Part shown: positions 2,312-17,979 of the stretch, piece after piece | How positions within the stretch are numbered: the first letter of the stretch is position 1 | How the letters are laid out: every line of letters starts with the position of its first letter | DNA from: Promethearchaeota archaeon | GTDB taxonomy: Archaea; Asgardarchaeota; Lokiarchaeia; Sigyniarchaeales; SOKP01 | Direction of reading: 5' to 3' | Assembly: GCA_019058015.1 (NCBI GenBank) | Contig: JAHLWH010000138.1 | Coordinates: forward strand, 1 to 32,013 | Length of the DNA stretch: 32,013 nucleotides | The notes under the pieces: model-generated | The model's input: the letters and a program-made list of their open reading frames with translations, nothing else | Databases searched by the model: none | Told to the model about the DNA's origin: nothing | Made by a program: the position numbers and the translations under genes

Positions 2312-4240
2312 ATGTCTGATGTTCGCATTGGTGTATTTGTTTGTAGATGAGGTATAAATATTGCGGGGGTTGTCGATGTTTCAAAAACCGTCGAAGAGCT
2401 GGATAAAGAAGAAAATGTCTGGGCTTGGGAGTACTTAAATATATGCACGGACACAGGAGCAGATTTTATTACTGAAAAGATAGAAGAAAAAAATCTTGAA
2501 AGGGTTGTTGTAGCGGCTTGCACTCCAAGAACACATCAACCAGTATTTCACAGTATCCTAAAAGATGCAGGCTTGCCTCCACGAATGCTTGAATTTGTAA
2601 ATATCAGAGAGCATTGTAGTTTTGTCCATATGTCAGAACCAGAAGAAGCAACTGTAAAGGCAATTGAATTAATCAAAGCAGGTATCGCGAGAGCAAATTT
2701 ATTAGAAGCTGTGCCAACCAAAATAGTTCCCGTAAAGAAATCTGCTTTAGTTGTTGGTGGCGGAATAGCGGGTTTGACAGCAGCTATTGATTTAGGAAAT
2801 GAAGGCTTTAAAGTCACTCTAGTAGAAAAAAAATCTACTACGGGTGGAAGAATGGCTCAATTGGATCGAACTTTCCCAACAGATGATTGTAGTATCTGAA
2901 TCTTGGGTCCTAAAATGTTAGAAGCAAATCGTCATCCTAATATTACTATAATGTCTCTAGCTGAAATAAAAGAGATAACAGGATATATTGGAAACTTCGA
3001 AGTTAAGGTACAGAAAAATCCAAGATATGTGTATGAAGAAACTTGCACGGGTTGTGGTCAGTGTACGGATGTTTGTCCAATATACATTCCAAACTATTTC
3101 GATGAAAATTTTTCAGCTAGAAAGTGTATTGACATTGCATTTGCACAAGCAGTTCCAGCAATTTACGACCTTGATAAAGAGTGGTGCGTAGAATGCTATG
3201 CTTGTGTTGATTCGTGTGATGTTCATTGTATTGATTTAAGTCAAGAACCCGAGATTGTTGAACTCGAAGTTGGAACGATTATAATCGCAACCGGTTGGGA
3301 CCTATATCAAGGAGATGAATATGGATACGGAAAATATGAAAATGTAGTAACACAAATTCAACTTGAAAGGATTCTCTCTCCAAATGGTCCAACTCTTGGC
3401 CATTTAAAGCGTCCATCCGATGGAAAGAGACCAAAAAACATATTATTTATTAATTGTGTTGGCTCAAGAAACGAGGAGCATCCGTGGTGCAGTAATGTAT
3501 GCTGTCTTTTATCAGTAAAAAATTCAAAACTAATAAAGTCAGAATATCCAGATGCAAATATTGTGGTTTCATACATAGATATGAGATGTGCAGGGAAAAT
3601 GTATGAAGAATATTATAAGCGTTCCAGAGAAGCCGGAATTATGTATATAAATGGGAAAGTAGGAAAATTAATTGAAGATCCAAAAACTAAGAATCTTGTC
3701 GCTAGTATGGAATCAATTGGGACTGGAGGTATTGTAGAATTTGAAGCTGATTTAGTAGTTCTATCTTCAGCATCATTACCTTCAGCTGGAACTGATGAGA
3801 TTGCACAAGTTCTAAAATTGGAGAAAAGCCCTAGTGGTTTCTTAAAGGAATTTCATCCAAGACTTGATCCCATCGAAACTAAGTCGCCTGGAATCTATAT
3901 TTGTGGTTCTTGCCAAGGGCAAAAAGCGATCGATGCAACTGTCAATCATGCAAGAGGGGCAGCACAAGCTGCTTCAATTCCGATGAACAAAGGAGAATTT
4001 GTTATTGAATTAATTCGGGCTGATCCGATTGATGAAAGGTGTGCAAAATGCTATATGTGTATAGAAACATGCCCTTATAGCGCCATCTCGGTTAATGAAG
4101 CTGGACAAATTGAAGTTGATCTTATAAGTTGTAGAGGATGCGGTATGTGTGCTGCAACTTGTCCATCAATCGCAATTGAGCTTCGTTATTACCGAGATTA
4201 TCAATTCAATGCAGTAATTGACTCATTATTCGAAGCATAA
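2312..4240 (+). CDS. hdrA: Heterodisulfide reductase subunit A, selenoprotein with two Sec (U13, U196), 642 aa
   Basis: One frame from ATG 2312: MSDVRIGVFVCR-TGA(2348-2350)-GINIAGVVDV...VVAACTPRTH...VGGGIAG...RTFPTDDCSI-TGA(2897-2899)-ILGPKM... to TAA 4238-4240. Both TGAs sit at conserved HdrA Cys positions (CxC; DCSxC). This joins track ORFs 2573-2899 and 2903-4240. Confidence 0.95.
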
Positions 4241-4259
4241 ACAAAAGGAGGAAAAAATC

Positions 4260-4688
4260 ATGAGTTCTGATATAAAGATTGCATCCTTTATGTGTTGGAA
4301 ATGAGGGTATGGCTCTGGTGATATGGCTGGTACTATTCGCGCACAATATCCAATAAGTATTAGACCGATATTAGTTCCTTGCGCTGGAAGAGTTGGTTCA
4401 GAGCTAGTTATGAGAACAATCGGTCGTGGTGCCGATGGAGTTCTAATTGTTGGATGATATCCAGGTGAATGTGATTTCGAAACAGGGAATAAATTTGCAT
4501 GGAGAGAAGTTGAATATCTTAATGAAGTTTTAGATACTATAGGTTTTTCTAATAAAAGAGTTAAAATGGCATTCTGCACTTCTGCAGAAGGACAAAAATT
4601 TCAAAGAGTAGCAACCGAATTTGACAAAGAAATTCGAAAACTAGGAAAAAACCCCCTCAAAAACAAAAATTCCGATAAGAATGAATAA
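4260..4688 (+). CDS. vhuD: MvhD/VhuD/FlpD [2Fe-2S] hydrogenase delta subunit, selenoprotein with two Sec (U15, U66), 142 aa
   Basis: Missed by the ORF track. SD GGAGG, ATG 4260: MSSDIKIASFMCWK-TGA(4302-4304)-GYGSGDMAG...VPCAGRV...GADGVLIVG-TGA(4455-4457)-YPGECDF...SAEG...TAA. The TGAs occupy the CxxC and GCxxGEC cysteines of MvhD. Confidence 0.95.
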
Positions 4689-6570: not shown

Positions 6571-7242
6571 ATGCCAAAATATAATCCAAAAGAAGCAAGG
6601 GATACTAAAAGAAGAAGACAAAAAAGAATCGCAACTCAAAAAAGGAAAAGAAATTTTAGGAGTTTTACTCATTATGCCCCAATAATTGGGGTTATTGTTA
6701 TGTTGTCGATTGTTGTAATATCTATTTTTTATTTAGTTGGAAACGAGAATGAACTGGCGGCTGGAGGAGTTGATGATGACAGTGGAAATAATAATGATAA
6801 TCAACAAAATGAGATTCCTAATTTGTATCAAACAGATTTAACTTTTACGACGATTGAAGGGGATACAATTAAATTAGCAGATCATAAAGGAAAAGTTATT
6901 ATTTTATTTTTCTTTGGCTTAAATTGTTACCCTTGCGATGTTGAAGCTAGTATTTTAATCGATATCGATAATTATTATTCAAATAGTGAGGCATTAATTA
7001 TTCCTATTGCTACTGACCCCACATATTCATATAACGATTTAAATAATTGGAAAAATAATTATAACCCAAGTTGGGATATCGTTCGTGATGATATTTCTCA
7101 CTCATATAGTAGCTATTTCAGCATTGCGTACCTCCCTACAGTAATAATTTTGGACAAAAATGGTAATATTGAAAAAAAAATAATTGGTCCCGATCAAGGA
7201 AGTTATGATAATATAAAAGAGGAAATTGATACATTATTATAA
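6571..7242 (+). CDS. Membrane-anchored TlpA/ResA-like thioredoxin
   Basis: Basic N-terminus, one TM helix, GKVIILFFFGLNCYPC (CxxC) and LPTVIILDKNG (cis-Pro loop). Confidence 0.85.
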   Translation: MPKYNPKEARDTKRRRQKRIATQKRKRNFRSFTHYAPIIGVIVMLSIVVISIFYLVGNENELAAGGVDDDSGNNNDNQQNEIPNLYQTDLTFTTIEGDTIKLADHKGKVIILFFFGLNCYPCDVEASILIDIDNYYSNSEALIIPIATDPTYSYNDLNNWKNNYNPSWDIVRDDISHSYSSYFSIAYLPTVIILDKNGNIEKKIIGPDQGSYDNIKEEIDTLL

Positions 7243-7288: not shown

Positions 7289-8053
7289 ATGGCTGATATA
7301 ATTTTATTTTTATTGGCAATAAGTGGTGGAATAGTTTCTTTTTTAACGCCATGTAATCTAGCAATATTACCATCGTTTATTGCTTATCTTGGAAACCAGG
7401 CAAATTCAACCAAAAAAAGCACTCTAATGAGTTTTTTCTTTTCATTAGGGTTTTGTTGTATGTTTTCGATAATCGCTGCCTTGTTTATAGTTATTTCTGG
7501 TTTTATTAGATTTACATTTTGGTTAAAATTATTCTCAGGTATTGTAATAATATGTTTGGCAATCTATCTCTTCACTGCAAAACAATTTACACGAAAAACT
7601 CCCTTTTATAAATCATCTCAAAAATCTAATATCAAAAATAAGAATTTGAATTCCTCTAAAATAAGTGAAAATACTGAAGAATTTAATATTTTAGAATTAG
7701 ATGATGAAACAATGAAATATGTGGGTTATAGTGGAGCATTTATTCTTGGATTTTCTCTGGGTTCAACTTGGATTGGATGTATTACACCTATTTATTTGGC
7801 AATCGTTACAATTGCTTCGAATCAAGAAAGTTTTATAGTAGGTATGTTTTTATTTTTCTTTTACGCGTTAGGCATGATGATTCCATATTTAATAATAGGT
7901 GCTTCAATAGGAAAAATAAAACAAAGATTTTTTATTAAACTAATTAAGATTGGTTCAAAAATTCAAAAAATATTTACAATTATCTTAATATATATTGGAT
8001 TTGAATTAATTTTATCGGCTTTTGGTATTCCTGGGTTGTTACCTTTTATTTAA
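7289..8053 (+). CDS. ccdA: CcdA/DsbD-type transmembrane electron transporter
   Basis: GIVSFLTPCNLAILP and GFSLGSTWIGCITP motifs, about 6 TM segments, adjacent to a TlpA gene. Confidence 0.88.
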   Translation: MADIILFLLAISGGIVSFLTPCNLAILPSFIAYLGNQANSTKKSTLMSFFFSLGFCCMFSIIAALFIVISGFIRFTFWLKLFSGIVIICLAIYLFTAKQFTRKTPFYKSSQKSNIKNKNLNSSKISENTEEFNILELDDETMKYVGYSGAFILGFSLGSTWIGCITPIYLAIVTIASNQESFIVGMFLFFFYALGMMIPYLIIGASIGKIKQRFFIKLIKIGSKIQKIFTIILIYIGFELILSAFGIPGLLPFI

Positions 8054-8151: not shown

Positions 8152-8509
8152 TCATAATTACTTTAGATTTTCGTATAGCGTTAAACTCTTAAGAGTTCTC
8201 AATATTATACCCTATTTAATAATTAACCCTCAACAATTTTGAACCTAAGTCAAGTTTAAATCTAAACGATCCACAATCATTCAAATATCATTCTTAATTA
8301 TTCAATGTGAAAAAAGAGAAATTTGAAAAGATTTTGAATTATAATTTAAAAAAATTTACAGAAAAGGAAATAATAAGGTAAGATTAAGTAAAACTGATGT
8401 AAGTAGATGATTTAATTTTTCATAAAAATGAAATTTTTTAATAAAACAAGACATCTTTAAAAATAAATTAATTTTATCGTCAAATAACTGATTTTTTAAA
8501 ATAATACTC

Positions 8510-8582
8510 TAAATTTTAAAGAGGGGGCAACCCTTTTGTCAATCTTGCACTAACATTTTTTGAAAGATATCATACAAATTTA
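8510..8582 (-). promoter_or_regulatory. SECIS element downstream of the UGA-UGA gene (copy 2)
   Basis: Minus strand ATGA(8573-70)-t-ATCTTTCA-AAAAA-tgttag-TGCAAGAT-t-GA-c with 7/8 pairs, hairpin AGGG-ttgcc-CCCT and basal TAAATTT/AAATTTA. Spacing is identical to the vhuD SECIS. Confidence 0.8.
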
Positions 8583-8584
8583 AT

Positions 8585-9040
8585 CTATTTCTTTAGTTTT
8601 TTAAAGTAATGGGCAAAATATTCATTTTCTTTTCCGAATTTTTTCATAATGATCTTTTTGAGTGAACCCATATCTAATCGTTGCTTGACCTTTTCTCATC
8701 AACATCCAGCATCAGGATGTAGCTTAATCTCACTATCTGGATACAAATTGAAATCCAAATTATCCCGAAGAGGCATAAACTGTCTATTAGGTCCATAAGC
8801 ATTCACAGCGCAGTCGTCGTATATCTCATTTTTTTGTGGATTCCAGAATAATTGTAGATAAGTTTTAATATAGCCCTCATATAAAGGGAATGGAGAATTT
8901 TCTGGATTTTCTAAAACATGTTTATCCACAATAGCTAATGCTTCAATAAATTTAGCGTCGTCCTTTACTAATACCTCATATTTTTTACCTTCATTGAGCC
9001 CTTTTACAGGTGCAAAAATTGTAAATTCAATTTTTTTAAT
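8585..9040 (-). CDS. Candidate novel selenoprotein with a Cys-Sec-Sec motif (about 151 aa), possibly beta-grasp-like N-terminal domain
   Basis: The frame is open from ATT 9040 (after SD-like GGTGGTG): IKKIEFTIFAPVKG...KLHPDAGC-TGA(8701-8699)-TGA(8698-8696)-EKVKQRLDMGSLKKIIMKKFGKENEYFAHYFKKLKK-TAG(8587-8585). The SECIS core follows 11 nt later. The start codon is uncertain. Confidence 0.7.
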
Positions 9041-9135: not shown

Positions 9136-10284
9136 TTATCTTTTTAGGTTATTTATATTTGCTGATGGCTTCTTCATATCTTTCCCAAAAACCATGGCTT
9201 CTTCATATCCTTCCCAAAAACCACGCCTTCCTAAAAATCTACCTAAATATACCATAGACAGCATCACAGGAACTTCCCAGAATAACCCCATTGTAGTACC
9301 TAACGCCGCAATTGAACCAACTCCATACATCGCAACAGCAACGGCAATAGCAATCTCAAAATGGCTCGAAGAGCCAATAATTATTGTAATTATTGCATAA
9401 CGATAGCTCAATTTTAACAGTTTGGTGATTAATATATTGTAACCAACAACAATAGCAAATCCAACTAAGAGGGGGATAGTAATTAATAACAATAAATCTG
9501 GGTTTCCTACAAGGACTTCGCCGTTTAATGAAAATAATACAACTAAAGTCATCAGCAATGCAATTATTGCTACTGTCGATACAGCGGGTTTATACTTAGT
9601 GTTAAACCACACCTCCCCTTTTGTTTTAGTTAAAGCTTTCTTAGTTATTATCCCTAACAATAGTGGTAGCCCAATAAATACAGCTAAAGAAATCAATAAG
9701 GTCATCGGATCTAAAGGAATTTTTTTCTCTAAAGTAATATTTGCTAGAAATACTAGGAGAGTTACAACAGGTATATACAAAAAAATAATAGTGACCGTAT
9801 TTAAGCTAGTTGTAACTACATTTTGTTCTTGATTTCCTTTTGCCATCCAACCCCATACTAATACCATAGCAGTACATGGACTACTGCTAAGTAAAAGAAC
9901 AGCTAAAACGAGTTGTTCATTTACTCTTAGGAATAAGATTGCCATTGCAGCACCCACTAAAGGAGCTACAATCCAATTGGATAATAACGTTAATATTATT
10001 GGTTTGGGATTTTTTCCCAATTTTTTCAGCTCAGATACTTGGAGATTTAACATTGCTGGATACATCATAAGAAAAAGGCAGATACCAATAGGTATAGAAA
10101 TCCCCGCAATTTGCCAAGAATCAATCGTCTCACCTATTCCAGGAACGAACTGCGATAGTAAGATCCCTAATAACATGCATAATGCGATCCAAATAGGAAG
10201 TAATTTCTCGAAAAAACTGATCCCTTTAGGTTTTTCTTTATTACTTTCTACTTCCGCCACAAGTCCCGCCTCAATTTCTGTCAA
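9136..10284 (-). CDS. acr3: Acr3-family arsenite efflux transporter
   Basis: FFEKLLPIWI, LFLMMYPAM, NWIVAP, SPCTAMVLVW, SSHFEIAIAVA and GLFWEVPVML. Confidence 0.93.
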   Translation of the reverse strand: MTEIEAGLVAEVESNKEKPKGISFFEKLLPIWIALCMLLGILLSQFVPGIGETIDSWQIAGISIPIGICLFLMMYPAMLNLQVSELKKLGKNPKPIILTLLSNWIVAPLVGAAMAILFLRVNEQLVLAVLLLSSSPCTAMVLVWGWMAKGNQEQNVVTTSLNTVTIIFLYIPVVTLLVFLANITLEKKIPLDPMTLLISLAVFIGLPLLLGIITKKALTKTKGEVWFNTKYKPAVSTVAIIALLMTLVVLFSLNGEVLVGNPDLLLLITIPLLVGFAIVVGYNILITKLLKLSYRYAIITIIIGSSSHFEIAIAVAVAMYGVGSIAALGTTMGLFWEVPVMLSMVYLGRFLGRRGFWEGYEEAMVFGKDMKKPSANINNLKR

Positions 10285-10419: not shown

Positions 10420-10770
10420 ATGGAAAAAAAAACAATTGAAGAAATTAAAAAGTTAATTGAATGTATTGGTCTTAATGTAGATGTAAATGAATATATTAAA
10501 GAATTAAAGAAAAACAAAGATAAAATTTTATCTAATACTGACTTTAAAAAGATGGTTAATTTTCATAAAGCGCTTGGACATAGGTCTAGGTATTTAATTT
10601 ATAATTTGATAAAGAAAAAAAAAATGTGCATATGTGAGTTAAATGTGATTATAGACTTAGCCCAACCAACAATTTCACATCATGTGAAAATTTTAGAACA
10701 AGCAGATTTGATTGAAGGAATAAAAAATGGTAAATTTACTCATTATCAAATTATAAAGGAAATTAATTAG
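10420..10770 (+). CDS. arsR: ArsR/SmtB-family regulator
   Basis: KALGHRSRYLI...MCICEL...AQPTISHHVKILEQADLI, divergent from acr3. Confidence 0.9.
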   Translation: MEKKTIEEIKKLIECIGLNVDVNEYIKELKKNKDKILSNTDFKKMVNFHKALGHRSRYLIYNLIKKKKMCICELNVIIDLAQPTISHHVKILEQADLIEGIKNGKFTHYQIIKEIN

Positions 10771-10824: not shown

Positions 10825-11292
10825 CTAGCAATTAATATTTTTTTCTCGTAATTTATCCAAGATATAATTCGAAATTTTTTCAACTTCTTCCTGATTCACA
10901 TCGTTTGCCTTAGGGATTTTTTGAAAAGCGTAAGGATCATTTAAATCTAAATCTTGTTTAGGAACGAATTGTTGAAGGTTAATTACTAAATCGGGTTTTA
11001 TATCAAGAGCTTTTAGGATCTGAACCATACATGATGTTCTACAACCATCAATTACTATTATATAATTTGAAAATAATCGTTGTTTAGTCATTTCAAAAAG
11101 ATTTTCTTTCTTAAGTAAATAATTTCTTAAAAAAAAAGTTGAGCAAAAAAATTCACTAAAATTTGAGATTGAATCATTAACATCTAAGTTTAATGCAATT
11201 TTGCGTGCCAATTCCCCATTATATTCAGATCCTGAGCAGGGTATTAAGATAATACTTTTTTCAGGTGTTTTCATTTCTGTCATTTGTATCAT
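10825..11292 (-). CDS. DGC-domain putative zinc-binding protein
   Basis: IILIPCSG...FFCS...VIDGCRTSC. Confidence 0.75.
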   Translation of the reverse strand: MIQMTEMKTPEKSIILIPCSGSEYNGELARKIALNLDVNDSISNFSEFFCSTFFLRNYLLKKENLFEMTKQRLFSNYIIVIDGCRTSCMVQILKALDIKPDLVINLQQFVPKQDLDLNDPYAFQKIPKANDVNQEEVEKISNYILDKLREKNINC

Positions 11293-11304
11293 CCAATTTT
11301 ATTA

Positions 11305-11589
11305 CTATATTATGCCTTTTTCTTTCAAAAGTTCAGGCAATTTTTGTTTGAATAGAAATGGAGATGTAAAAATTACTTTTCCCTCAACAACTACGCTATT
11401 ACCGCGCAAATTTAATTTACGAGCTTCTTCAGAATCTAAATTTTTAGTTTGAAATTTAATTTTTTTTTTATAATCCTGAAAAGCCGAAAAAACAGAATTC
11501 ATAAATCTTTCCCATATACACGCGCATGTATTTAATGGCACATAAATATCGACTTTAAGTTTATGATCTACATCATTATCCTTTGACAT
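11305..11589 (-). CDS. Small thioredoxin-like / ArsD-like protein with a CxC motif
   Basis: KVDIYVPLNTCAC...NSVVVEGKVI. The fold assignment is by eye. Confidence 0.5.
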   Translation of the reverse strand: MSKDNDVDHKLKVDIYVPLNTCACIWERFMNSVFSAFQDYKKKIKFQTKNLDSEEARKLNLRGNSVVVEGKVIFTSPFLFKQKLPELLKEKGII

Positions 11590-11602
11590 AATACCACCCT
11601 AC

Positions 11603-11923
11603 TTAAATTTCAGCTTGTATTTCTACAATTTTTTTAAATTTTTTATTCCTTTTTATCAAATTATCGATAGTTGCTAACAATTTGAATATTTGAGGATCTT
11701 TAATTCTATAAAGCACTTTCACGCCTTCTTTTCTTCCAACGATTAAGTCAGCATTCATCAATTTTTTTAAATGCCTAGAAAGCGTAGATTGGGACTTTTC
11801 GAACACTTTCTCCAAGTCACAAGCGCACAATTCCTCTCCATGTCTAAGAAGGCTTAGAATTTCGAGACGAGATACATCAGACAGGGCGTTTAATAACTTT
11901 AATCTTAAATTTTGAAGATCCAC
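11603..11923 (-). CDS. arsR: ArsR/SmtB-family regulator (ELCACDL As(III)-type site)
   Basis: ALSDVSRLEIL...ELCACDL...SQSTLSRHLKKL...RKEG. Confidence 0.9.
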   Translation of the reverse strand: MDLQNLRLKLLNALSDVSRLEILSLLRHGEELCACDLEKVFEKSQSTLSRHLKKLMNADLIVGRKEGVKVLYRIKDPQIFKLLATIDNLIKRNKKFKKIVEIQAEI

Positions 11924-12038
11924 ATTAAATTCAAATTTGCATTTTTATACATATATTCATAATAAATATCTTATTCTTAAAATAAAAAGGTTGTCATTAT
12001 AAAATAAATCTGTTTTAATTATTTAATTTTATGTGTTC

Positions 12039-12054
12039 ATGCGCGATAGTGCAT
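12039..12054. promoter_or_regulatory. Possible operator ATGC-N8-GCAT
   Basis: ATGCGCGATAGTGCAT is the only GC-rich dyad in the divergent promoter, just upstream of a TATA-like TATTTAAATA. Confidence 0.35.
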
Positions 12055-12116
12055 ATATTTAAATAATATATTATTTATTTTATCATAGAAAAAAAAATTA
12101 ATTTCCGTGAAGAAGA

Positions 12117-12518
12117 ATGGCAGGAAACGAGAAAGAAAAGGAAGAAAAGGAAATCGGTTTTGTAATGTGCGTTTGTACTGGAAAATGCCCTGGATTCGCA
12201 AGAATGGATATTTGGGATTTTATCAATAGAGTTCGAGTGGAATTGCCAGTAGAATACGGTTTTATTCACCCACAATTATGTGAGGAAGATGGTGATAGAT
12301 TTCTTGATGATTTTTTACGACCTGGGAGAAAATATATAGTTGCTGGTTGCGCTCCAAATATGCAATATAAATTATTCCGGGACGCATTTAAAAAGGCAGG
12401 ACTTGATGTTAAAAAGGATCTAATTCCTTTAGACATACGAGAGATGACTACTGATGAAGCCGTTGATTTAGTGGAAAAGAAATTAGAAGAATTGGAGGAG
12501 GATGGTGATAATGGGTGA
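12117..12518 (+). CDS. Stand-alone HdrA N-terminal-domain-like Fe-S protein
   Basis: IGFVMCVCTGKC...HPQLC...IVAGCAP...LDIREM parallels the HdrA N-terminus in this window (GVFVCRU...NIC...VVAACTP...VNIREH). Confidence 0.75.
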   Translation: MAGNEKEKEEKEIGFVMCVCTGKCPGFARMDIWDFINRVRVELPVEYGFIHPQLCEEDGDRFLDDFLRPGRKYIVAGCAPNMQYKLFRDAFKKAGLDVKKDLIPLDIREMTTDEAVDLVEKKLEELEEDGDNG

Positions 12519-12825
12519 AGGATACGATGCTGATAAAGAAACTTTTATGAGCGTTCCCAGGAAAAAAATACCATGGTGGCCTACGATAGATTACGAAAAG
12601 TGCGATTTTTGCATGGAATGCGATAAATTCTGTCCGCATAATGTATACGCAAAAACTAACGATGATAATAAAAAATTAATTGTAAAAAATCCTTATAATT
12701 GCGTCGTATTTTGTCGCGTATGTGCAAAAGCGTGTGCTCCAAACGCGTTAAAATTTCCGGATAAGAGAAAGATTACGAAATTAATTAAAAAATTGAGGTC
12801 AGAACAAAAAGGAGAATCACAGTGA
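12511..12825 (+). CDS. 2x[4Fe-4S] ferredoxin
   Basis: CDFCMECDKFCP and CVVFCRVCAKACA. ATG 12511 follows GGTGA (track start 12502). Confidence 0.85.
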   Translation: MGEGYDADKETFMSVPRKKIPWWPTIDYEKCDFCMECDKFCPHNVYAKTNDDNKKLIVKNPYNCVVFCRVCAKACAPNALKFPDKRKITKLIKKLRSEQKGESQ

Positions 12826-13718
12826 CAAACTATAAGCTATGTATAATACCATGTAATGGATTAGATAAATCATTAGGGATAATTGCGCGAACTGTTGCCT
12901 TAAAAACCATCGAAAAAGAACCAAAAATAGAATTAATTTGCCCCGTTTTGTTAAACAATGGGGAGAAAAAATACGAAGAAATCTTAAAATCTTCTAAAAT
13001 TGTTGTAGTTGATGGTTGTATGACAGGATGTGCCACCAAATTAATAGAAGAAAGAAATCTAAAGATATTTAAAAAAGTATTCATCCCCGAAATGTCTAAA
13101 AAATTTAAATTAAAACCTGGAAAAAATTTAATCTTGACGGAGGAGGGAATTAACTTAGCTAAAACGATTGCTACTGAATTAATTGAATCATTAGATCGTT
13201 CTGATGACGAGATAACTATTGAATATAAAGAGATAGAAGATATTGACTATTTTGATATAACTGTTGATAAATTCTATTTTCGAGTGCCGAAAAGTGGATT
13301 TAATTTTAACGAAAACGATTGCTGGATAAAACCAGAGGGAGATTTAGGTTTAATTGGTATCACAGATTATTTACAGAACAGCGCCAGCGATATCATGTTC
13401 GTGGAATTACCCGAAATTGGTGGGAAAATTGAACAATTTGATGATGTTGGAAGTTTTGAATCGGTAAAAACTGTTTTACAATTGATTTCACCTGTGTCTG
13501 GAGAGATTGTATCTATAAACAAACTATTAGAGAAACAGCCAGAACTCTTAAACCAAGATCCTTACGGAAAAGGATGGTTTGCTGAAATAAAATTAGCAAA
13601 TTTCGAAGAAGATAAGGAACTTTTAATGGACTGTTCAGAATATTTTGAATATATGAAAAATAAAATTATGAAAGAAAGTGAGCATTTAAAAAAAATGAAA
13701 AGTGAGAAAAATGACTAA
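12822..13718 (+). CDS. DGC-domain / glycine cleavage H (lipoyl carrier) fusion protein
   Basis: N-terminal IIPCNG...LICP...VVDGCMTGC. C-terminal GITDYLQ...FVELP...GSFESVKTV (lipoyl-Lys)...SPVSGEI...LNQDPYGKGW. Confidence 0.88.
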   Translation: MTNYKLCIIPCNGLDKSLGIIARTVALKTIEKEPKIELICPVLLNNGEKKYEEILKSSKIVVVDGCMTGCATKLIEERNLKIFKKVFIPEMSKKFKLKPGKNLILTEEGINLAKTIATELIESLDRSDDEITIEYKEIEDIDYFDITVDKFYFRVPKSGFNFNENDCWIKPEGDLGLIGITDYLQNSASDIMFVELPEIGGKIEQFDDVGSFESVKTVLQLISPVSGEIVSINKLLEKQPELLNQDPYGKGWFAEIKLANFEEDKELLMDCSEYFEYMKNKIMKESEHLKKMKSEKND

Positions 13719-14127
13719 AAAAAAAGTATTCATTATCCCTTGTAGCGGAATAGGCAAGGTTTTTGGTAGTATTGGCAGAGAAACCGCATATATCGTAGCA
13801 AATGAGTTATCAAGAGAAAAAGCTGCATTGGAATGTCTCCCTTTAATAGTGAAAGGGAAAAGCGAAGTTATTGAAGCGTTAAAAGAGAATAAGGTAATTA
13901 CGATTGATGGATGCCCTTTAAAGTGTTCTTATAATAATTTAATGGAGAAAGTGGGAAAGGTTGATTCACAATTCATGACTACAAATGTAGTTAAGGAAAA
14001 TCGGGACTTGAAACCTGAACCAAAAATTATACCAATAGGTGAAAACACTAAAAAATTATCCCAAAAATTAGCAGAACAAGTTGCAAAAGAAGTGGATAGA
14101 TTACTTGAAGAAGAGGGAGTGGAATAG
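13711..14127 (+). CDS. DGC-domain putative zinc-binding protein
   Basis: FIIPCSG...LECL...TIDGCPLKC. ATG 13711 overlaps the upstream gene end. Confidence 0.85.
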   Translation: MTKKKVFIIPCSGIGKVFGSIGRETAYIVANELSREKAALECLPLIVKGKSEVIEALKENKVITIDGCPLKCSYNNLMEKVGKVDSQFMTTNVVKENRDLKPEPKIIPIGENTKKLSQKLAEQVAKEVDRLLEEEGVE

Positions 14128-14131
14128 TCAA

Positions 14132-14551
14132 ATGAAGAAGAAGGTGGGAATTATTGCATGTAGTGGGGAAAATTTATTGGGGGGCACTTTAAGCCGTGCA
14201 GCAGCAAGAATTGTAGTTGAAAAATTACGCCCTAATAATACTATTATATTATGTCAGCCTTTATTCGCAGCTGGTGGGTTAGAAAGGCATGGTGGACAAG
14301 ATGAGCGAGATTTTGCTAAAAATCACCCAACTATTACTATAGAAGGTTGTAAAGAAGAATGCTCAAAAATTGCGGTTGAGCGATATAGCGGACCTGTTGC
14401 AGCAACCATAAGAGTTGACGAGATTATGGAAGCTCATTTCGAACTAAATCCTGAATCTCGGGAAGATTTAGGAGAAAACGGGATGAAATTAGCAGAGATA
14501 GTCGCTGAAGAGATTGCGAAGAAGGTTGACGAATATTTTCGGAGAGAATAA
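14132..14551 (+). CDS. DGC-domain putative zinc-binding protein
   Basis: GIIACSG...ILCQ...TIEGCKEEC, starting at ATG 14132. Confidence 0.85.
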   Translation: MKKKVGIIACSGENLLGGTLSRAAARIVVEKLRPNNTIILCQPLFAAGGLERHGGQDERDFAKNHPTITIEGCKEECSKIAVERYSGPVAATIRVDEIMEAHFELNPESREDLGENGMKLAEIVAEEIAKKVDEYFRRE

Positions 14552-14578
14552 AAGGACTTCAGCCTTTTGCTTTTTTTT
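14550..14578 (+). terminator. Hairpin plus U-tract terminator candidate
   Basis: AAAAGG-acttcag-CCTTTT followed by gc and T8, immediately after the stop codon. Confidence 0.4.
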
Positions 14579-14610
14579 AAATTCCCTTTAATAATAAAAA
14601 GAGATGGTGT

Positions 14611-15330
14611 GTGATTAAAAGAATAAATGGTTTGAAAATTGGTATTATATCTGATGGAAAATACGGAGAAAGGGCTTATGAGAATTTTAGACAAATTTTT
14701 GCAACCGAATGGATTCTTGTTCCCGATATTCCATCAACAGTAATGCTTGATGAGGAAATTGAACTGGACATTCCCGACTGCGATCTTTACATTTCTTATG
14801 TAAGACATCCAGATATGATACTTCAGCTAGCAGAGCTTCAGAAATCTTTGATTTTAGGAATCACGCCTGGAATTGGATTATATCATCAAGCAAAACGGAT
14901 TAATCCTAAAGTTATTAGCCCTCGCACGATGTGTTCATTAGAACCAAACACTGGTATCCCAGAAGTGGATGAATTTGCGAAATATTTTGGAAGACCCATT
15001 TTTAATATAGAATCGAATTCCCAAGGAAATATAACTGATGTTTTCGTTATAAGGTCATCTCCTTGCGGTTCTTCTCAAGCTGGAGCAGATTTTTTTAAAA
15101 ATAAAAAGCTAAGCGTTCAGAATTTACAAGATCTCGCCCTAAGCGTGTGTCACGAATGCAGGGCACCAAGGTTCGGGCACACTTGTGACAAAGAAGTCTC
15201 TGGAATAATTCACATGTTATCGTTCGTAAGTAATATTAAACTTGACGATAATTCGGAGTTAAGTGAAGACTTGAAAATATTTATCAAAGATATTAAAATT
15301 GAATATCAAAAGCGTGCAAAAATCGAATAA
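14611..15330 (+). CDS. DUF166-family protein
   Basis: GKYGERA...HPD...MCSLE...EFAKYFGRP...VIRSSPCGS...CRAPR...IH pattern. Confidence 0.7.
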   Translation: MIKRINGLKIGIISDGKYGERAYENFRQIFATEWILVPDIPSTVMLDEEIELDIPDCDLYISYVRHPDMILQLAELQKSLILGITPGIGLYHQAKRINPKVISPRTMCSLEPNTGIPEVDEFAKYFGRPIFNIESNSQGNITDVFVIRSSPCGSSQAGADFFKNKKLSVQNLQDLALSVCHECRAPRFGHTCDKEVSGIIHMLSFVSNIKLDDNSELSEDLKIFIKDIKIEYQKRAKIE

Positions 15331-15712
15331 TGAAAAATAAAAAAAAATAAGTTTTAAGTCTTTTATTAAAAATTTATCCAGAAAAAGGCGTTTATTTTTC
15401 TCAATATGCTTGGTATGAAATTCCATTCATTTACATCTATAATTATTTTTTACACGCCGGAGTTAGTTTAACTTTTGCCTTTCTAATGTCTGGGATTATT
15501 CAAGTGTTTATCTCTCAAGAGATTATCATAGAGTATCTCGGGTCTAAAAAGAAGAAAAATCTTTTATGATGGGACAGATCTATGATGTCGTTTCAATGGT
15601 ACCAAATAGTAGATTTTTTAAATGGAAAGGAGTTGCATTGTATACAGTAATATATTTCTTATTTTCTGTGATTTCCGGAATTTTTTATGGACTTTTATTA
15701 GGAGAATTATGA
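15330..15712 (+). pseudogene. ArsP/DUF318-like permease remnant with nonsense codon and large internal deletion
   Basis: ATG 15330 is coupled to the upstream TAA, with an in-frame TAA at 15348. The frame continues ...YFLHAGVSLTFAFLMSGIIQVFISQEIIIEYLGSKKK (N-terminal motif), then jumps frame to MMGQIYDVVSMVPNSRFFKWKGVALYTVIYFLFSVISGIFYGLL (C-terminal-like helix). Confidence 0.65.
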
Positions 15713-16977: not shown

Positions 16978-17979
16978 ATGGTAAAGCGTGTAGCTATCAA
17001 CGGTTTTGGACGTATTGGCAGAAATTTTTTCAGAGCTGCTTGGGGAAATCCCGGTCTTGAGATTGTTAGTATTAACGATCTCTTTGCCCCAGAATATCTA
17101 GCATATGTGTTAAAATATGACTCTGTATTTGGTCGCTTTAAAGGAGATATCAAACACACTGAGAATAGCCTAATAATCGATGGACGCGAGATACCCATAA
17201 CGGCAGAACGAGATCCTGCAAATCTTCCTCACGCAAGTAACAATATTGATGTCGTATTAGAATCAACGGGATTTTTCACTAAGCGAGATGGAGCAGCAAA
17301 ACATCTTGCTGCTGGAGCAAAAAAAGTCCTAATTAGTGCTCCTGCCACCGATCCTGATGTCACTGTAGTCATTGGAGTAAATGATGATATAATAAAAGAT
17401 GAACATAAAATTATCAGCAATGCGAGTTGTACTACCAATTGTTTAGGCCCAGTAACTAAAGTACTACATGATAATTTTACTATTTCTAGCGGATTTATGA
17501 CAACCATTCACTCTTATACCGGAGATCAAAGAACAGTAGACACAGCTCGAAAAGATTCTCCAATTAAAATGACTCGTGGAAGAGGTGCGGCTGCAAATAT
17601 GATACCAACCAGTACAGGTGCTGCAAAAGCAATTGGTGTAGTAATTCCTGATTTACAAGGGAAGATAGATGGTGTAGCGGTTCGTGTGCCAACTCCAGAT
17701 GGTAGTGTTGTAGATTTAACGGTTGTAGTTGAGAAGGATGTGAGCGTAGATGCTGTAAATTCTGCCATGAAAGCGGCAGCAGAAGGTCCACTAAAAGATA
17801 TTCTCGAATATACTGAAGACCCGATTGTTTCAAGTGATGTTATTGGTAATCCTCACAGTTCTGTCTTTAGCGCTATGATGACTAAGGTTATTGGTAAAAC
17901 TGTCAAAATATTTTCATGGTATGATAATGAATGGGGCTATTCCATGAGATGTGTTGATTTAATTGTAAATAAATTATAA
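16978..17979 (+). CDS. gap: Class I (bacterial/eukaryotic-type) glyceraldehyde-3-phosphate dehydrogenase
   Basis: VAINGFGRIGR, ESTGFF, NASCTTNCL, PTSTGAAKA, RVPT and WYDNEWGYS. Confidence 0.96.
   Translation: MVKRVAINGFGRIGRNFFRAAWGNPGLEIVSINDLFAPEYLAYVLKYDSVFGRFKGDIKHTENSLIIDGREIPITAERDPANLPHASNNIDVVLESTGFFTKRDGAAKHLAAGAKKVLISAPATDPDVTVVIGVNDDIIKDEHKIISNASCTTNCLGPVTKVLHDNFTISSGFMTTIHSYTGDQRTVDTARKDSPIKMTRGRGAAANMIPTSTGAAKAIGVVIPDLQGKIDGVAVRVPTPDGSVVDLTVVVEKDVSVDAVNSAMKAAAEGPLKDILEYTEDPIVSSDVIGNPHSSVFSAMMTKVIGKTVKIFSWYDNEWGYSMRCVDLIVNKL

Follow-up and report, generated by a model that had tools for sequence, protein, structure and literature searches.

A conserved cassette of DGC proteins, a lipoyl carrier and an HdrA-N-like protein in arsenic islands of Asgard archaea and bacteria: a possible thiol redox relay

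The use of a GcvH-like lipoyl carrier outside glycine cleavage has been described for the sHdr-LbpA systems, in which it is found with an LplA-type ligase, a proposed coupling to dihydrolipoyl dehydrogenase (Lpd), Hdr-related Fe-S parts and an ArsR-family regulator in a context of sulfur oxidation, as set out in the portion of Cao et al. 2018 available to us (PMC6067878). In ArsR-controlled arsenic operons the described dithiol reductant systems are the thioredoxin reductase/thioredoxin/ArsC chains, including those with ArsE of the MTH895 family, and in the ArsD-ArsA systems a small Cys-rich protein is encoded alongside arsenite efflux genes. The only printed mention that we found of the DGC domain (PF08859) in an ars operon is the arsR-arsP-arsE operon of Pseudodesulfovibrio mercurii ND132 (bioRxiv 10.1101/2022.10.17.512643), whose single DGC protein has an unknown function and for which the accessible part of that preprint describes no lipoyl carrier or Fe-S partners. 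In this study we analysed a stretch of 32,013 nucleotides from a Promethearchaeota archaeon (GenBank assembly GCA_019058015.1, contig JAHLWH010000138.1, positions 1 to 32,013), hereafter the window, which also has PF08859 genes in an ars setting. Its cassette encodes, in this order, a homologue of the N-terminal Fe-S domain of HdrA (HdrAN), a ferredoxin (Fer4), a fusion of a DGC with a GcvH domain (DGC::GcvH) and two stand-alone DGC proteins, DGCb and DGCc (Table 1). A preliminary description, made from the sequence alone, had proposed that these genes form an undescribed thiol/lipoate/selenol relay for the handling of (organo)arsenicals or of a related soft metal(loid). We give a probability of about 0.5 to our own reading, in which the cassette belongs to the ars regulon and works as an arsenite/antimonite-induced thiol redox relay with a protein-bound lipoyl arm at its centre; both the action on arsenic and the species acted on we infer from sequence. 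No description of the cassette was found in the literature searched, which did not cover supplementary files.

Although the cassette resembles the sHdr-LbpA systems in all the parts named above, it has neither the HdrB/C catalytic subunits nor the flavin-bearing HdrA body, only the 133-aa homologue of the N-domain; it has three to four DGC proteins, its carrier is fused to DGC and has a Cys in the cavity of the arm, and its context is one of ars genes. HdrB/HdrC-type CCG subunits were found neither in the open reading frames (ORFs) of the window nor in the recurrent neighbour clusters of related loci, and the HdrBC of this genome is on another contig, C129, in another context. Like the thioredoxin/ArsC chains the cassette would be a dithiol reductant system in ArsR-controlled arsenic operons, and it meets ArsE-type proteins both as neighbours and in one natural fusion (see below), but its dithiol would be the lipoyl arm on a GcvH domain, its electron input would be Fe-S proteins and/or Lpd, and its Cys-rich acceptor would be DGC, which has no detectable similarity to ArsC. 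As in the ArsD-ArsA systems small Cys-rich proteins are encoded alongside arsenite efflux genes, but there is no sequence similarity to ArsD, which is also without the redox cofactors of the cassette.

Relatives of the fusion numbered 237 at E <= 1e-3, and from a scan that took one genome per species the best 80 of 141 loci, 33 Asgard-like and 47 bacterial, were compared by searching their six-frame ORFs with the cassette proteins of the window. The order HdrAN-Fer4-DGC::GcvH-DGCb-DGCc was kept in 80/80 of these loci and is therefore an arrangement far beyond chance; the DGC genes were present in 80/80, Fer4 in 77/80 and HdrAN in 72/80, the shortfalls of the last two arising because contig ends cut those loci. 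The carriers are Asgard archaea of Loki-, Heimdall-, Jord- and Frey-type and members of at least 8 bacterial phyla, among them Acetobacterium species, Clostridium ljungdahlii, Eubacterium callanderi, Moorella and Caloramator as well as Actinomycetota, Dehalococcoidales, Melainabacteria and Armatimonadota. In a tree of 76 fusions the Asgard clade (29 rows; Shimodaira-Hasegawa-like approximate likelihood ratio support 99) was apart from the bacteria, and the tree tracked phyla, needing 11 label changes where 10 is the minimum. Recent inter-domain transfer therefore does not account for the high conservation, which reflects constraint. Two loci on contigs labelled as Nanopelagicaceae and Deferrimicrobium metagenome-assembled genomes (L006 and L019) have Loki-type synteny and were placed inside the Asgard clade; they are probably mis-binned. 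When a separate sample of 201 genomes of the phylum was screened for the cassette and acr3, the cassette was found in 33 (one further match, a real HdrA, was left out), and it was found in 1/3 other genomes of the host's genus; this patchy spread within the phylum is the pattern of an accessory module.

For neighbour counts the ORFs within 7.5 kb of the cassette were clustered and the cluster representatives annotated, and linkage was counted in the 39 bacterial and 24 Asgard-like loci that have 8 kb of flank or more. The preliminary description had made its reading depend on preferential linkage to ars genes elsewhere, and such linkage was found: an arsenic-specific gene was within 7.5 kb of the cassette in 28/39 bacterial and 11/24 Asgard-like loci, and either such a gene or an arsR gene in 35/39 and 19/24, respectively. 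Among all 80 loci the neighbours were ArsR in 56, Acr3 in 21-23, ArsA in 13, ArsP in 13 (12 bacterial, 1 Asgard-like), ArsD in 8 and ArsM in 5 (NF008823, 339 bits against a cut-off of 263), with a thioredoxin-type ArsC in 14, all of them bacterial, and an ArsE-family thioredoxin-like protein in 15, of which 14 are among the 47 bacterial loci. An LplA-type lipoate ligase was a neighbour in 18 loci and Lpd in 17 (TIGR01350, 515 bits against 408.8). The bacterial loci also have a cysteine desulfurase (15 loci), a PF04060 Fe-S protein (19 loci) and an IscA-like protein as neighbours, and DsrE, DsrH, TusA and YeeE are neighbours in 4-5 Asgard-like loci. In Caloramator fervidus a single strand reads arsR-acr3-arsP-lpd-cassette-lplA-MFS-arsR-arsE-arsP (MFS, major facilitator superfamily), and in C. 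ljungdahlii the cassette adjoins arsP-acr3-arsA-arsC-arsR. Of 45 cassette genomes 28 had acr3, with about 36 acr3 matches in total, and 17 of these matches were within 10 kb of the cassette, a vicinity that makes up about 0.6% of a genome. In the phylum sample acr3 was present in 30/33 cassette genomes compared to 101/168 others, kin among these genomes not being independent, and in 16/33 cassette genomes it was within 5 kb on the same contig. This phylum-wide count of acr3 adjacency is newly recognised here.

In the window arsR2 is the first gene of a divergent operon arsR2-CxC-DGCa upstream of the cassette, and arsR1 and acr3 are further to the left. Both ArsR proteins carry a CxC site and their ArsR/SmtB helix-turn-helix was confirmed with Pfam and NCBIfam; the CxC site is present in 39/39 ArsR ORFs found within 2 kb upstream of related cassettes. 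From this site in the DNA-binding region ArsR2 is predicted to be an As(III)-type sensor. The spacer between arsR2 and the cassette contains a palindrome, ATGyrT-N4-6-AyrCAT, which directly abuts TTTAAATA, the TATA box of the cassette promoter. The same pattern was found in 15/31 other arsR-cassette spacers, all 15 of them Loki-like and most with the pattern on both strands, and a search of the 3.84-Mb genome for its strict form gave one match, three shuffles giving 0, 0 and 2. Heimdall-type and Acetobacterium spacers have different perfect palindromes at the equivalent place. We regard the pattern as a candidate ArsR2 operator; its conserved position next to the TATA box of the cassette is newly recognised. 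No operator shared by acr3 and the cassette was found in the window, the acr3-arsR1 spacer having a different palindrome. The small CxC protein between arsR2 and DGCa had been called thioredoxin-like, and this could not be confirmed: it belongs to no Pfam family, its NCBIfam match to TsoX is sub-threshold (19.7 bits against a cut-off of 52, E 7e-4), and no significant match was obtained to ArsE with hhalign, to the C-terminal extension of DGCc or to the PDB. Its residues P17, C21 and C23 are invariant, and its gene is present in 19/33 Asgard-like loci and in none of the 47 bacterial loci.

The GcvH domain of the fusion scores just above the cut-offs of the H-protein families (NF002270, 122.5 against 117; TIGR00527, 118.3 against 115.85), and it shares with the H-protein of glycine cleavage (PF01597) the fold and the lipoyl-lysine motif. 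The lipoyl lysine, K216, is invariant in the fusion alignment, the motif E[ST]xK being found in 76/77 fusions, and with the ligase and the true dihydrolipoyl dehydrogenase encoded near the loci counted above the lipoate part of the proposed relay is supported. The cavity in which the arm docks differs from that of the H-protein. It has been reported, in the part of PMC7733448 accessible to us, that in the E. coli H-protein Glu-12 and Glu-14 hold the aminomethyl-lipoyl arm fast in the cavity, that His-13 touches its sulfur and that Ser-67, Asp-68 and Tyr-70 steer the release of the arm. In an alignment to solved H-proteins Glu-12, His-13 and Glu-14 correspond to N165, D166 and C167 of the fusion, and Ser-67, Asp-68 and Tyr-70 to L219, Q220 and I222; N165-D166-C167-W168 forms an NDCW motif that is present in 72/77 fusions, and with the exception of Q220 the substituted residues are invariant or nearly so across the fusion family. 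This mapping is credible because the GcvH part of the fusion model (predicted local distance difference test score, pLDDT, 85.7) superposes on the pea H-protein 1dxm_A with Z 22.5 at 1.1 A root-mean-square deviation (rmsd) over 131 residues. As judged from the alignment, the carrier is without the residues that glycine cleavage needs and has gained a thiol where the head of the arm is expected to dock, and the reduced lipoyl arm together with C167 would give three sulfurs, the coordination that As(III) favours. This remodelling of the arm cavity in DGC::GcvH fusions is newly recognised. A canonical GcvH with the HEW motif is encoded together with GcvP on contig C129 of the same genome, which has one LplA and one Lpd, and the fusion is thus a specialised carrier in addition to this GcvH; unlike the H-protein it is fused to DGC and unlinked to GcvP/T, neither GcvP nor GcvT being found in the ORFs of the window or among the conserved annotated neighbour clusters of the 80 loci.

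HdrAN matched no Pfam or NCBIfam family. In an alignment of 36 archaeal and bacterial sequences its mean column identity was 61%, archaeal and bacterial members being 60-86% identical, and C18, C20, C24, C55 and C78 were invariant. Its profile aligned with residues of about 5-93 of solved HdrA (7bkb_A, E 1.3e-4; 9sfi_A, 1.3e-3; 5odc_A, 0.033) and, with hhalign, with the HdrA encoded in the window (E 1.2e-4). In a Foldseek search with its AlphaFold model (pLDDT 83; predicted TM-score, pTM, 0.78) the top seven matches were all HdrA chains (E 1.2e-3 to 7e-3; query TM-score, TMq, 0.50-0.54). A wide search with VIA gave generic Rossmann-like rows at Z <= 7.1, with none at Z >= 8 and no HdrA among the top 50 rows. 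The N-domain of HdrA (5odc, 7bkb, 8rvu) is thus the nearest solved structure and sequence, and mini-HdrA N-domain, as the protein had been called, is a fair name. Four of the five invariant Cys (those of the CxC, C55 and C78) align with Cys of HdrA, but HdrAN is free-standing, has one added invariant Cys (CxCxxxC) and, unlike full HdrA, is without the FAD-binding thioredoxin-reductase-like body and the ferredoxin domains. No longer or fused relatives of HdrAN were found at E <= 1e-10. In the ferredoxin Cys 34, 37, 40, 44, 67, 71, 74 and 78 are conserved among 85 sequences.

The four DGC proteins of the window score 41-61 bits against the Pfam cut-off of 27 and have four conserved Cys each, including those of the motif D/E/N-G-C-x3-C: C11, C40, C66 and C70 in the DGC domain of the fusion, C19, C50, C84 and C88 in DGCa (17 sequences), and in DGCb the invariant PCSGxGK, C45 and GC71xxxC75. 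DGCb and DGCc are homologous by hhalign (E 2e-30), and all four DGC matches in the genome are in this locus. This is a small family: a search of 1.84 billion proteins gave 582 representatives at E <= 1e-3. In a survey of 20 long DGC homologues 9 were tandem DGC-DGC proteins, one (P0268) was a natural fusion of DGC with Thioredoxin_3 of the ArsE family, two had GcvH, one DRTGG and one a glycosyltransferase domain, and 6 had no second family. The tandem and the Thioredoxin_3 fusions, newly recognised here, support a pairing of DGCb with DGCc and thiol-disulfide exchange as the probable role of DGC. A sequence search with DGC found no solved structure, and an Atlas search with the homologue P0007 returned only DGC clusters. 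The DGC model is a flavodoxin-like sandwich whose best match is the uncharacterised 3pu6_A (Z 9.8, rmsd 2.8 A, 108 residues), followed at Z 7-8 by flavodoxins, hydrogenase maturation proteases and low-molecular-weight (LMW) phosphatases alike, and for this reason no function of DGC is deduced from the fold. With hhalign DGC gave no significant match to HdrAN (E 0.085 and 0.018), to LMW ArsC (E 0.041) or to MvhD, DsrE and ArsD. There is thus no support for reading DGC as an Fe-S fold of the HdrA-N/MvhD kind. HdrAN and DGC are both generic Rossmann/flavodoxin-like sandwiches. In some bacterial loci (L050, L076, L080, L030 and L071) DGCc is 227-245 aa long, being extended at its C-terminus by about 100 aa that contain CxC motifs and belong to no known family.

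The features of the window are listed in Table 1. Every gene named in the preliminary description was recovered by ORF listing and family scans with Pfam and NCBIfam, and the operon is as tight as had been said, neighbouring genes overlapping or lying a few bases apart from 12117 to 14551. Its statement that glycine-cleavage P/T/L and arsC genes are absent also held, no GcvP, GcvT, Lpd or ArsC family being matched in window ORFs of at least 90 aa, the range that such absence calls cover.

Table 1. Positions of the cassette and of other features in the window
Feature	Positions	Strand	Basis or remark
HdrAN, homologue of HdrA N-terminal Fe-S domain, 133 aa	12117..12518	+	HdrA profile and Foldseek matches
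Ferredoxin (Fer4), two [4Fe-4S] motifs	12502..12825	+	Pfam Fer4_10, Fer4 and related families
DGC::GcvH fusion	12822..13718	+	Pfam DGC, residues 7-95, E 1.5e-16; GCV_H, residues 162-280, E 3.3e-35
DGCb, stand-alone DGC	13702..14127	+	Pfam PF08859, E 2.9e-15
DGCc, second stand-alone DGC paralogue	14081..14551	+	Pfam PF08859, E 2e-10; true start likely the ATG at 14132
DUF166 protein	14611..15330	+	Pfam PF02593, E 4e-31
arsP (ArsP_1 permease) remnant	15378..15709	+	tblastn with a relative's permease
Candidate ArsR2 operator palindrome	12039..12063	+	pattern shared with related spacers
arsR2, ArsR/SmtB repressor, ELCACDL	11603..11923	-	HTH_5, E 2e-15; NF033788, 83.8 bits
Small CxC protein, 94 aa	11305..11589	-	conserved in Asgard-like loci
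DGCa, fourth DGC protein	10825..11292	-	Pfam PF08859, E 4e-11
arsR1, MCICEL motif	10420..10770	+	divergent from acr3
acr3, arsenite efflux permease	9136..10284	-	TIGR00832, 290.1 bits against cut-off 282.8
Cys-Sec-Sec selenoprotein candidate	8585..8929; downstream 8507..8578	-	
CcdA/DsbD-type membrane protein	7289..8053	+	weakly ArsG-like, E 5e-5
ResA/TlpA-like thiol-disulfide oxidoreductase, membrane-anchored	6571..7242	+	
MvhD	4218..4688	+	open with TGA read as selenocysteine
HdrA	2312..4240	+	open with TGA read as selenocysteine
Bacterial-type (type I) GAPDH	16978..17979	+	ArsJ-associated GAPDH model, 348 bits against cut-off 450

The arsP remnant was confirmed as a genuine deletion product. 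Searched with the permease of a relative (tblastn, query L010:6777-7808), it consists of residues 37-97 at 15378-15560 (72% identity, E 3e-25) and residues 294-343 at 15560-15709 (84% identity, E 8e-22), an internal deletion of about 196 residues, and its junction is spanned by contigs from other runs without a large insertion. No intact acr3 gene other than that of the window was found in the genome, a second acr3-like gene (C242:20640-21605, minus strand) being broken by two stop codons. The DUF166 gene is present in 15/33 Asgard-like and 0/47 bacterial loci and is an Asgard-specific add-on to the cassette operon; its product has C108, C152, C180, C183 and C192 conserved, and C57 is present in at least 90% of the sequences. 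In Methanococcus maripaludis a DUF166 gene is required for autotrophy and is co-fit with carbon monoxide dehydrogenase/acetyl-CoA synthase and CooC2, according to the accessible part of that report (10.1101/2024.03.05.583561), which by analogy suggests a role as a metal-centre or redox helper. A ResA/TlpA-like and CcdA/DsbD-type pair, as encoded in the window, was near the cassette in 21/80 loci and hints that reducing power is exported across the membrane. No ArsJ gene is near the glyceraldehyde-3-phosphate dehydrogenase (GAPDH) gene beside the island.

The G+C content of the window is low (about 24-38% per kb), the closest relatives of the cassette proteins are from Promethearchaeota, and the host is an Asgard (Loki-type) archaeon that uses UGA as selenocysteine (Sec). 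A scan for sigma-70 promoters and terminators gave 28 sites against 30.8 expected, which is uninformative as the host is an archaeon, and Rfam had no match anywhere in the window at E <= 1. HdrA and MvhD of the window are each open only when two in-frame TGA codons are read as Sec, and one of these replaces the second Cys of the N-terminal CxC of HdrA. The Cys-Sec-Sec candidate ends in ...GC, followed by TGA TGA and then, in the same frame, by a conserved tail about 35 aa long; the tandem TGA with the tail was found in 13/14 related ORFs of 12 Loki-like loci, usually beside acr3, in two subtypes, GC-UU-EKV and AD-UU-ADN, and no Pfam or NCBIfam family was matched. Directly downstream of this ORF is a conserved two-hairpin element that resembles a selenocysteine insertion sequence (AUGA...stem...GA and a 3' hairpin); in 10 sequences it shows 3 compensatory pairs, and Rfam has no match to it. 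An apparent Sec (U) in relatives of ArsR1 was rejected, being merely a stop codon. Across the 80 loci none of the cassette proteins was found to have Sec in place of a Cys. The relay proposed in the preliminary description is partly supported, in its linkage to ars genes and in its lipoate part, whereas its selenol part is represented by the neighbouring Cys-Sec-Sec gene and by no residue of the cassette proteins.

In the relay that we propose, three steps have support in the sequence. Expression would be induced by arsenic through the CxC ArsR encoded divergently upstream and the palindrome at the TATA box of the cassette; the GcvH domain would be lipoylated at the retained lysine, LplA and Lpd having their genes next to the cassette in many bacteria, and at other sites in this genome; and the arm would dock in a cavity that has lost the aminomethyl-holding residues and gained an invariant Cys. 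Electrons could then reach the lipoyl arm along either of two routes, from reduced ferredoxin through the ferredoxin of the cassette and HdrAN, or through Lpd from NAD(P)H, and would both hold the arm in its dithiol form and sustain its turnover. Arsenic may be bound by the dihydrolipoyl arm together with Cys167 and the DGC domains with their four Cys, reducing equivalents and/or As(III) would be passed on by thiol exchange, and the trivalent arsenic thus made would be handed over for export by Acr3, ArsP or ArsA. Such a relay would be the functional counterpart of the thioredoxin reductase/thioredoxin/ArsC chain. With two electron-transfer proteins under strict conservation and Lpd often encoded nearby, we favour catalytic reduction over sequestration alone. 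In this genome acr3 is present and no PF03960 ArsC was found, and the matches to LMW phosphatases are weak and in non-ars contexts; the part of PMC10060404 available to us reports that arsC1/arsC2 are missing from Asgard lineages, which may 'possess different enzyme systems'. Only tentatively would we go further and propose that the cassette is a new arsenic enzyme, a ferredoxin- or NADH/Lpd-driven reductase in which the dihydrolipoyl arm beside the cavity Cys reduces and chelates arsenic and the DGC proteins are new arsenic-binding modules of a thiol cascade. It would then be the 'missing' cytoplasmic reductase, for arsenate, methylated or antimony species, of Asgard archaea and many strict anaerobes, and the first use against arsenic of lipoate, the classic target of arsenite.

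Several observations weigh against an arsenic relay. Neither an arsR nor an ars gene was within 7.5 kb of the cassette in 4/39 bacterial and 5/24 Asgard-like well-flanked loci, and the cassette and a thioredoxin-type ArsC occur together in 14/47 bacterial loci, so the cassette is not simply a substitute for ArsC. The palindrome of acr3 differs from that of the cassette, and pump and cassette, not being obviously co-regulated, seem therefore to be under separate ArsR paralogues here. The CxC sites of the ArsR/SmtB family serve Sb(III) too and, with extra ligands, Cd and Pb. The fold of DGC is generic, with LMW phosphatase/ArsC-like chains only at Z 7.0 and 6.8, and its four Cys may be ligands of Zn, as the family description proposes, of an Fe-S cluster or of arsenic, or may cycle as disulfides. 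The cysteine desulfurase of 15 loci and the DsrE/TusA/YeeE neighbours of 4-6 loci could point to sulfur chemistry. It is on these last neighbours that one alternative draws, namely that the cassette is a sulfur/persulfide module like sHdr-LbpA or a redox module for another soft metal (Sb, Hg, Cd), with a regulator that senses something else. The sHdr systems likewise join a GcvH-like carrier with its own ligase, a coupling to Lpd and ArsR-type regulators, as far as the available part of PMC6067878 describes them, DsrH is a further neighbour in some Asgard-like loci, and the top NCBIfam matches of the ferredoxin are HgcB-like. No HdrB/C (CCG) family was matched in window ORFs, however, the metalloid CxC site is present in all 39 proximal regulators, and in most bacteria the neighbours are arsA, arsD, arsC, arsM, arsP and acr3 and not genes of sulfur oxidation, so that we consider this explanation unlikely. 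Sb(III), which would share the ars machinery, may be an alternative substrate.

If arsenic is what the cassette acts on, it may still not be reduced. A trap or metallochaperone, in which the arm, Cys167 and the DGC Cys sequester As(III) for Acr3, ArsP and ArsA as ArsD does for ArsA and the Fe-S proteins activate the arm once, would suit the invariant Cys in the arm cavity, which would permit a three-sulfur site, as well as the many four-Cys domains and the adjacent efflux genes; this we hold to be possible, though doubtful, as the binding of As(III) uses no electrons, yet the electron-transfer proteins are conserved (72/80 and 77/80) and Lpd is frequent. Lipoyl groups and Fe-S assembly are classic targets of As(III), and with a cysteine desulfurase in 15/47, a PF04060 Fe-S protein in 19/47 and an IscA-like protein among the bacterial loci one could also think of damage control: a decoy or repair system, induced by arsenic, would shield sensitive lipoyl and Fe-S enzymes or stand in for them, and arsenic itself would be neither transformed nor exported. 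The fusion cannot take the place of GcvH, however, the glycine-cleavage residues of its cavity being gone, and the tight embedding of the cassette among transporter genes favours a path of detoxification; damage control is in our view improbable. That the fusion is an ordinary H-protein of glycine cleavage or one-carbon metabolism, to which DGC is joined incidentally, would agree with the canonical fold and with GcvH scores just over the cut-offs. The canonical GcvH of this genome is, however, with GcvP on contig C129, Glu12, His13, Glu14, Ser67, Asp68 and Tyr70 are replaced by N, D, C, L, Q and I, and no GcvP/GcvT family was found among the conserved neighbour clusters of the 80 loci, which makes this explanation extremely improbable, and a role in glycine cleavage is for practical purposes excluded. 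An arsenic-induced thiol redox relay therefore remains the reading that we prefer.

The ars systems are among the best-mapped detoxification systems, yet this cassette is found in ars islands without a description in the literature searched. Its carriers include the well-studied and genetically tractable acetogens Acetobacterium, Clostridium ljungdahlii and Eubacterium callanderi, and the relay hypothesis is directly testable in cultured anaerobes. It bears on the question, already raised in print, of how Asgard archaea that carry acr3 and lack arsC handle arsenate. If it is true, a function would be given to three orphan types, the DGC domain, the free HdrA-N domain and the GcvH variant with a Cys in its cavity, and arsenic handling would join acyl transfer, glycine cleavage and sulfur oxidation as a fourth role of lipoate bound to protein.

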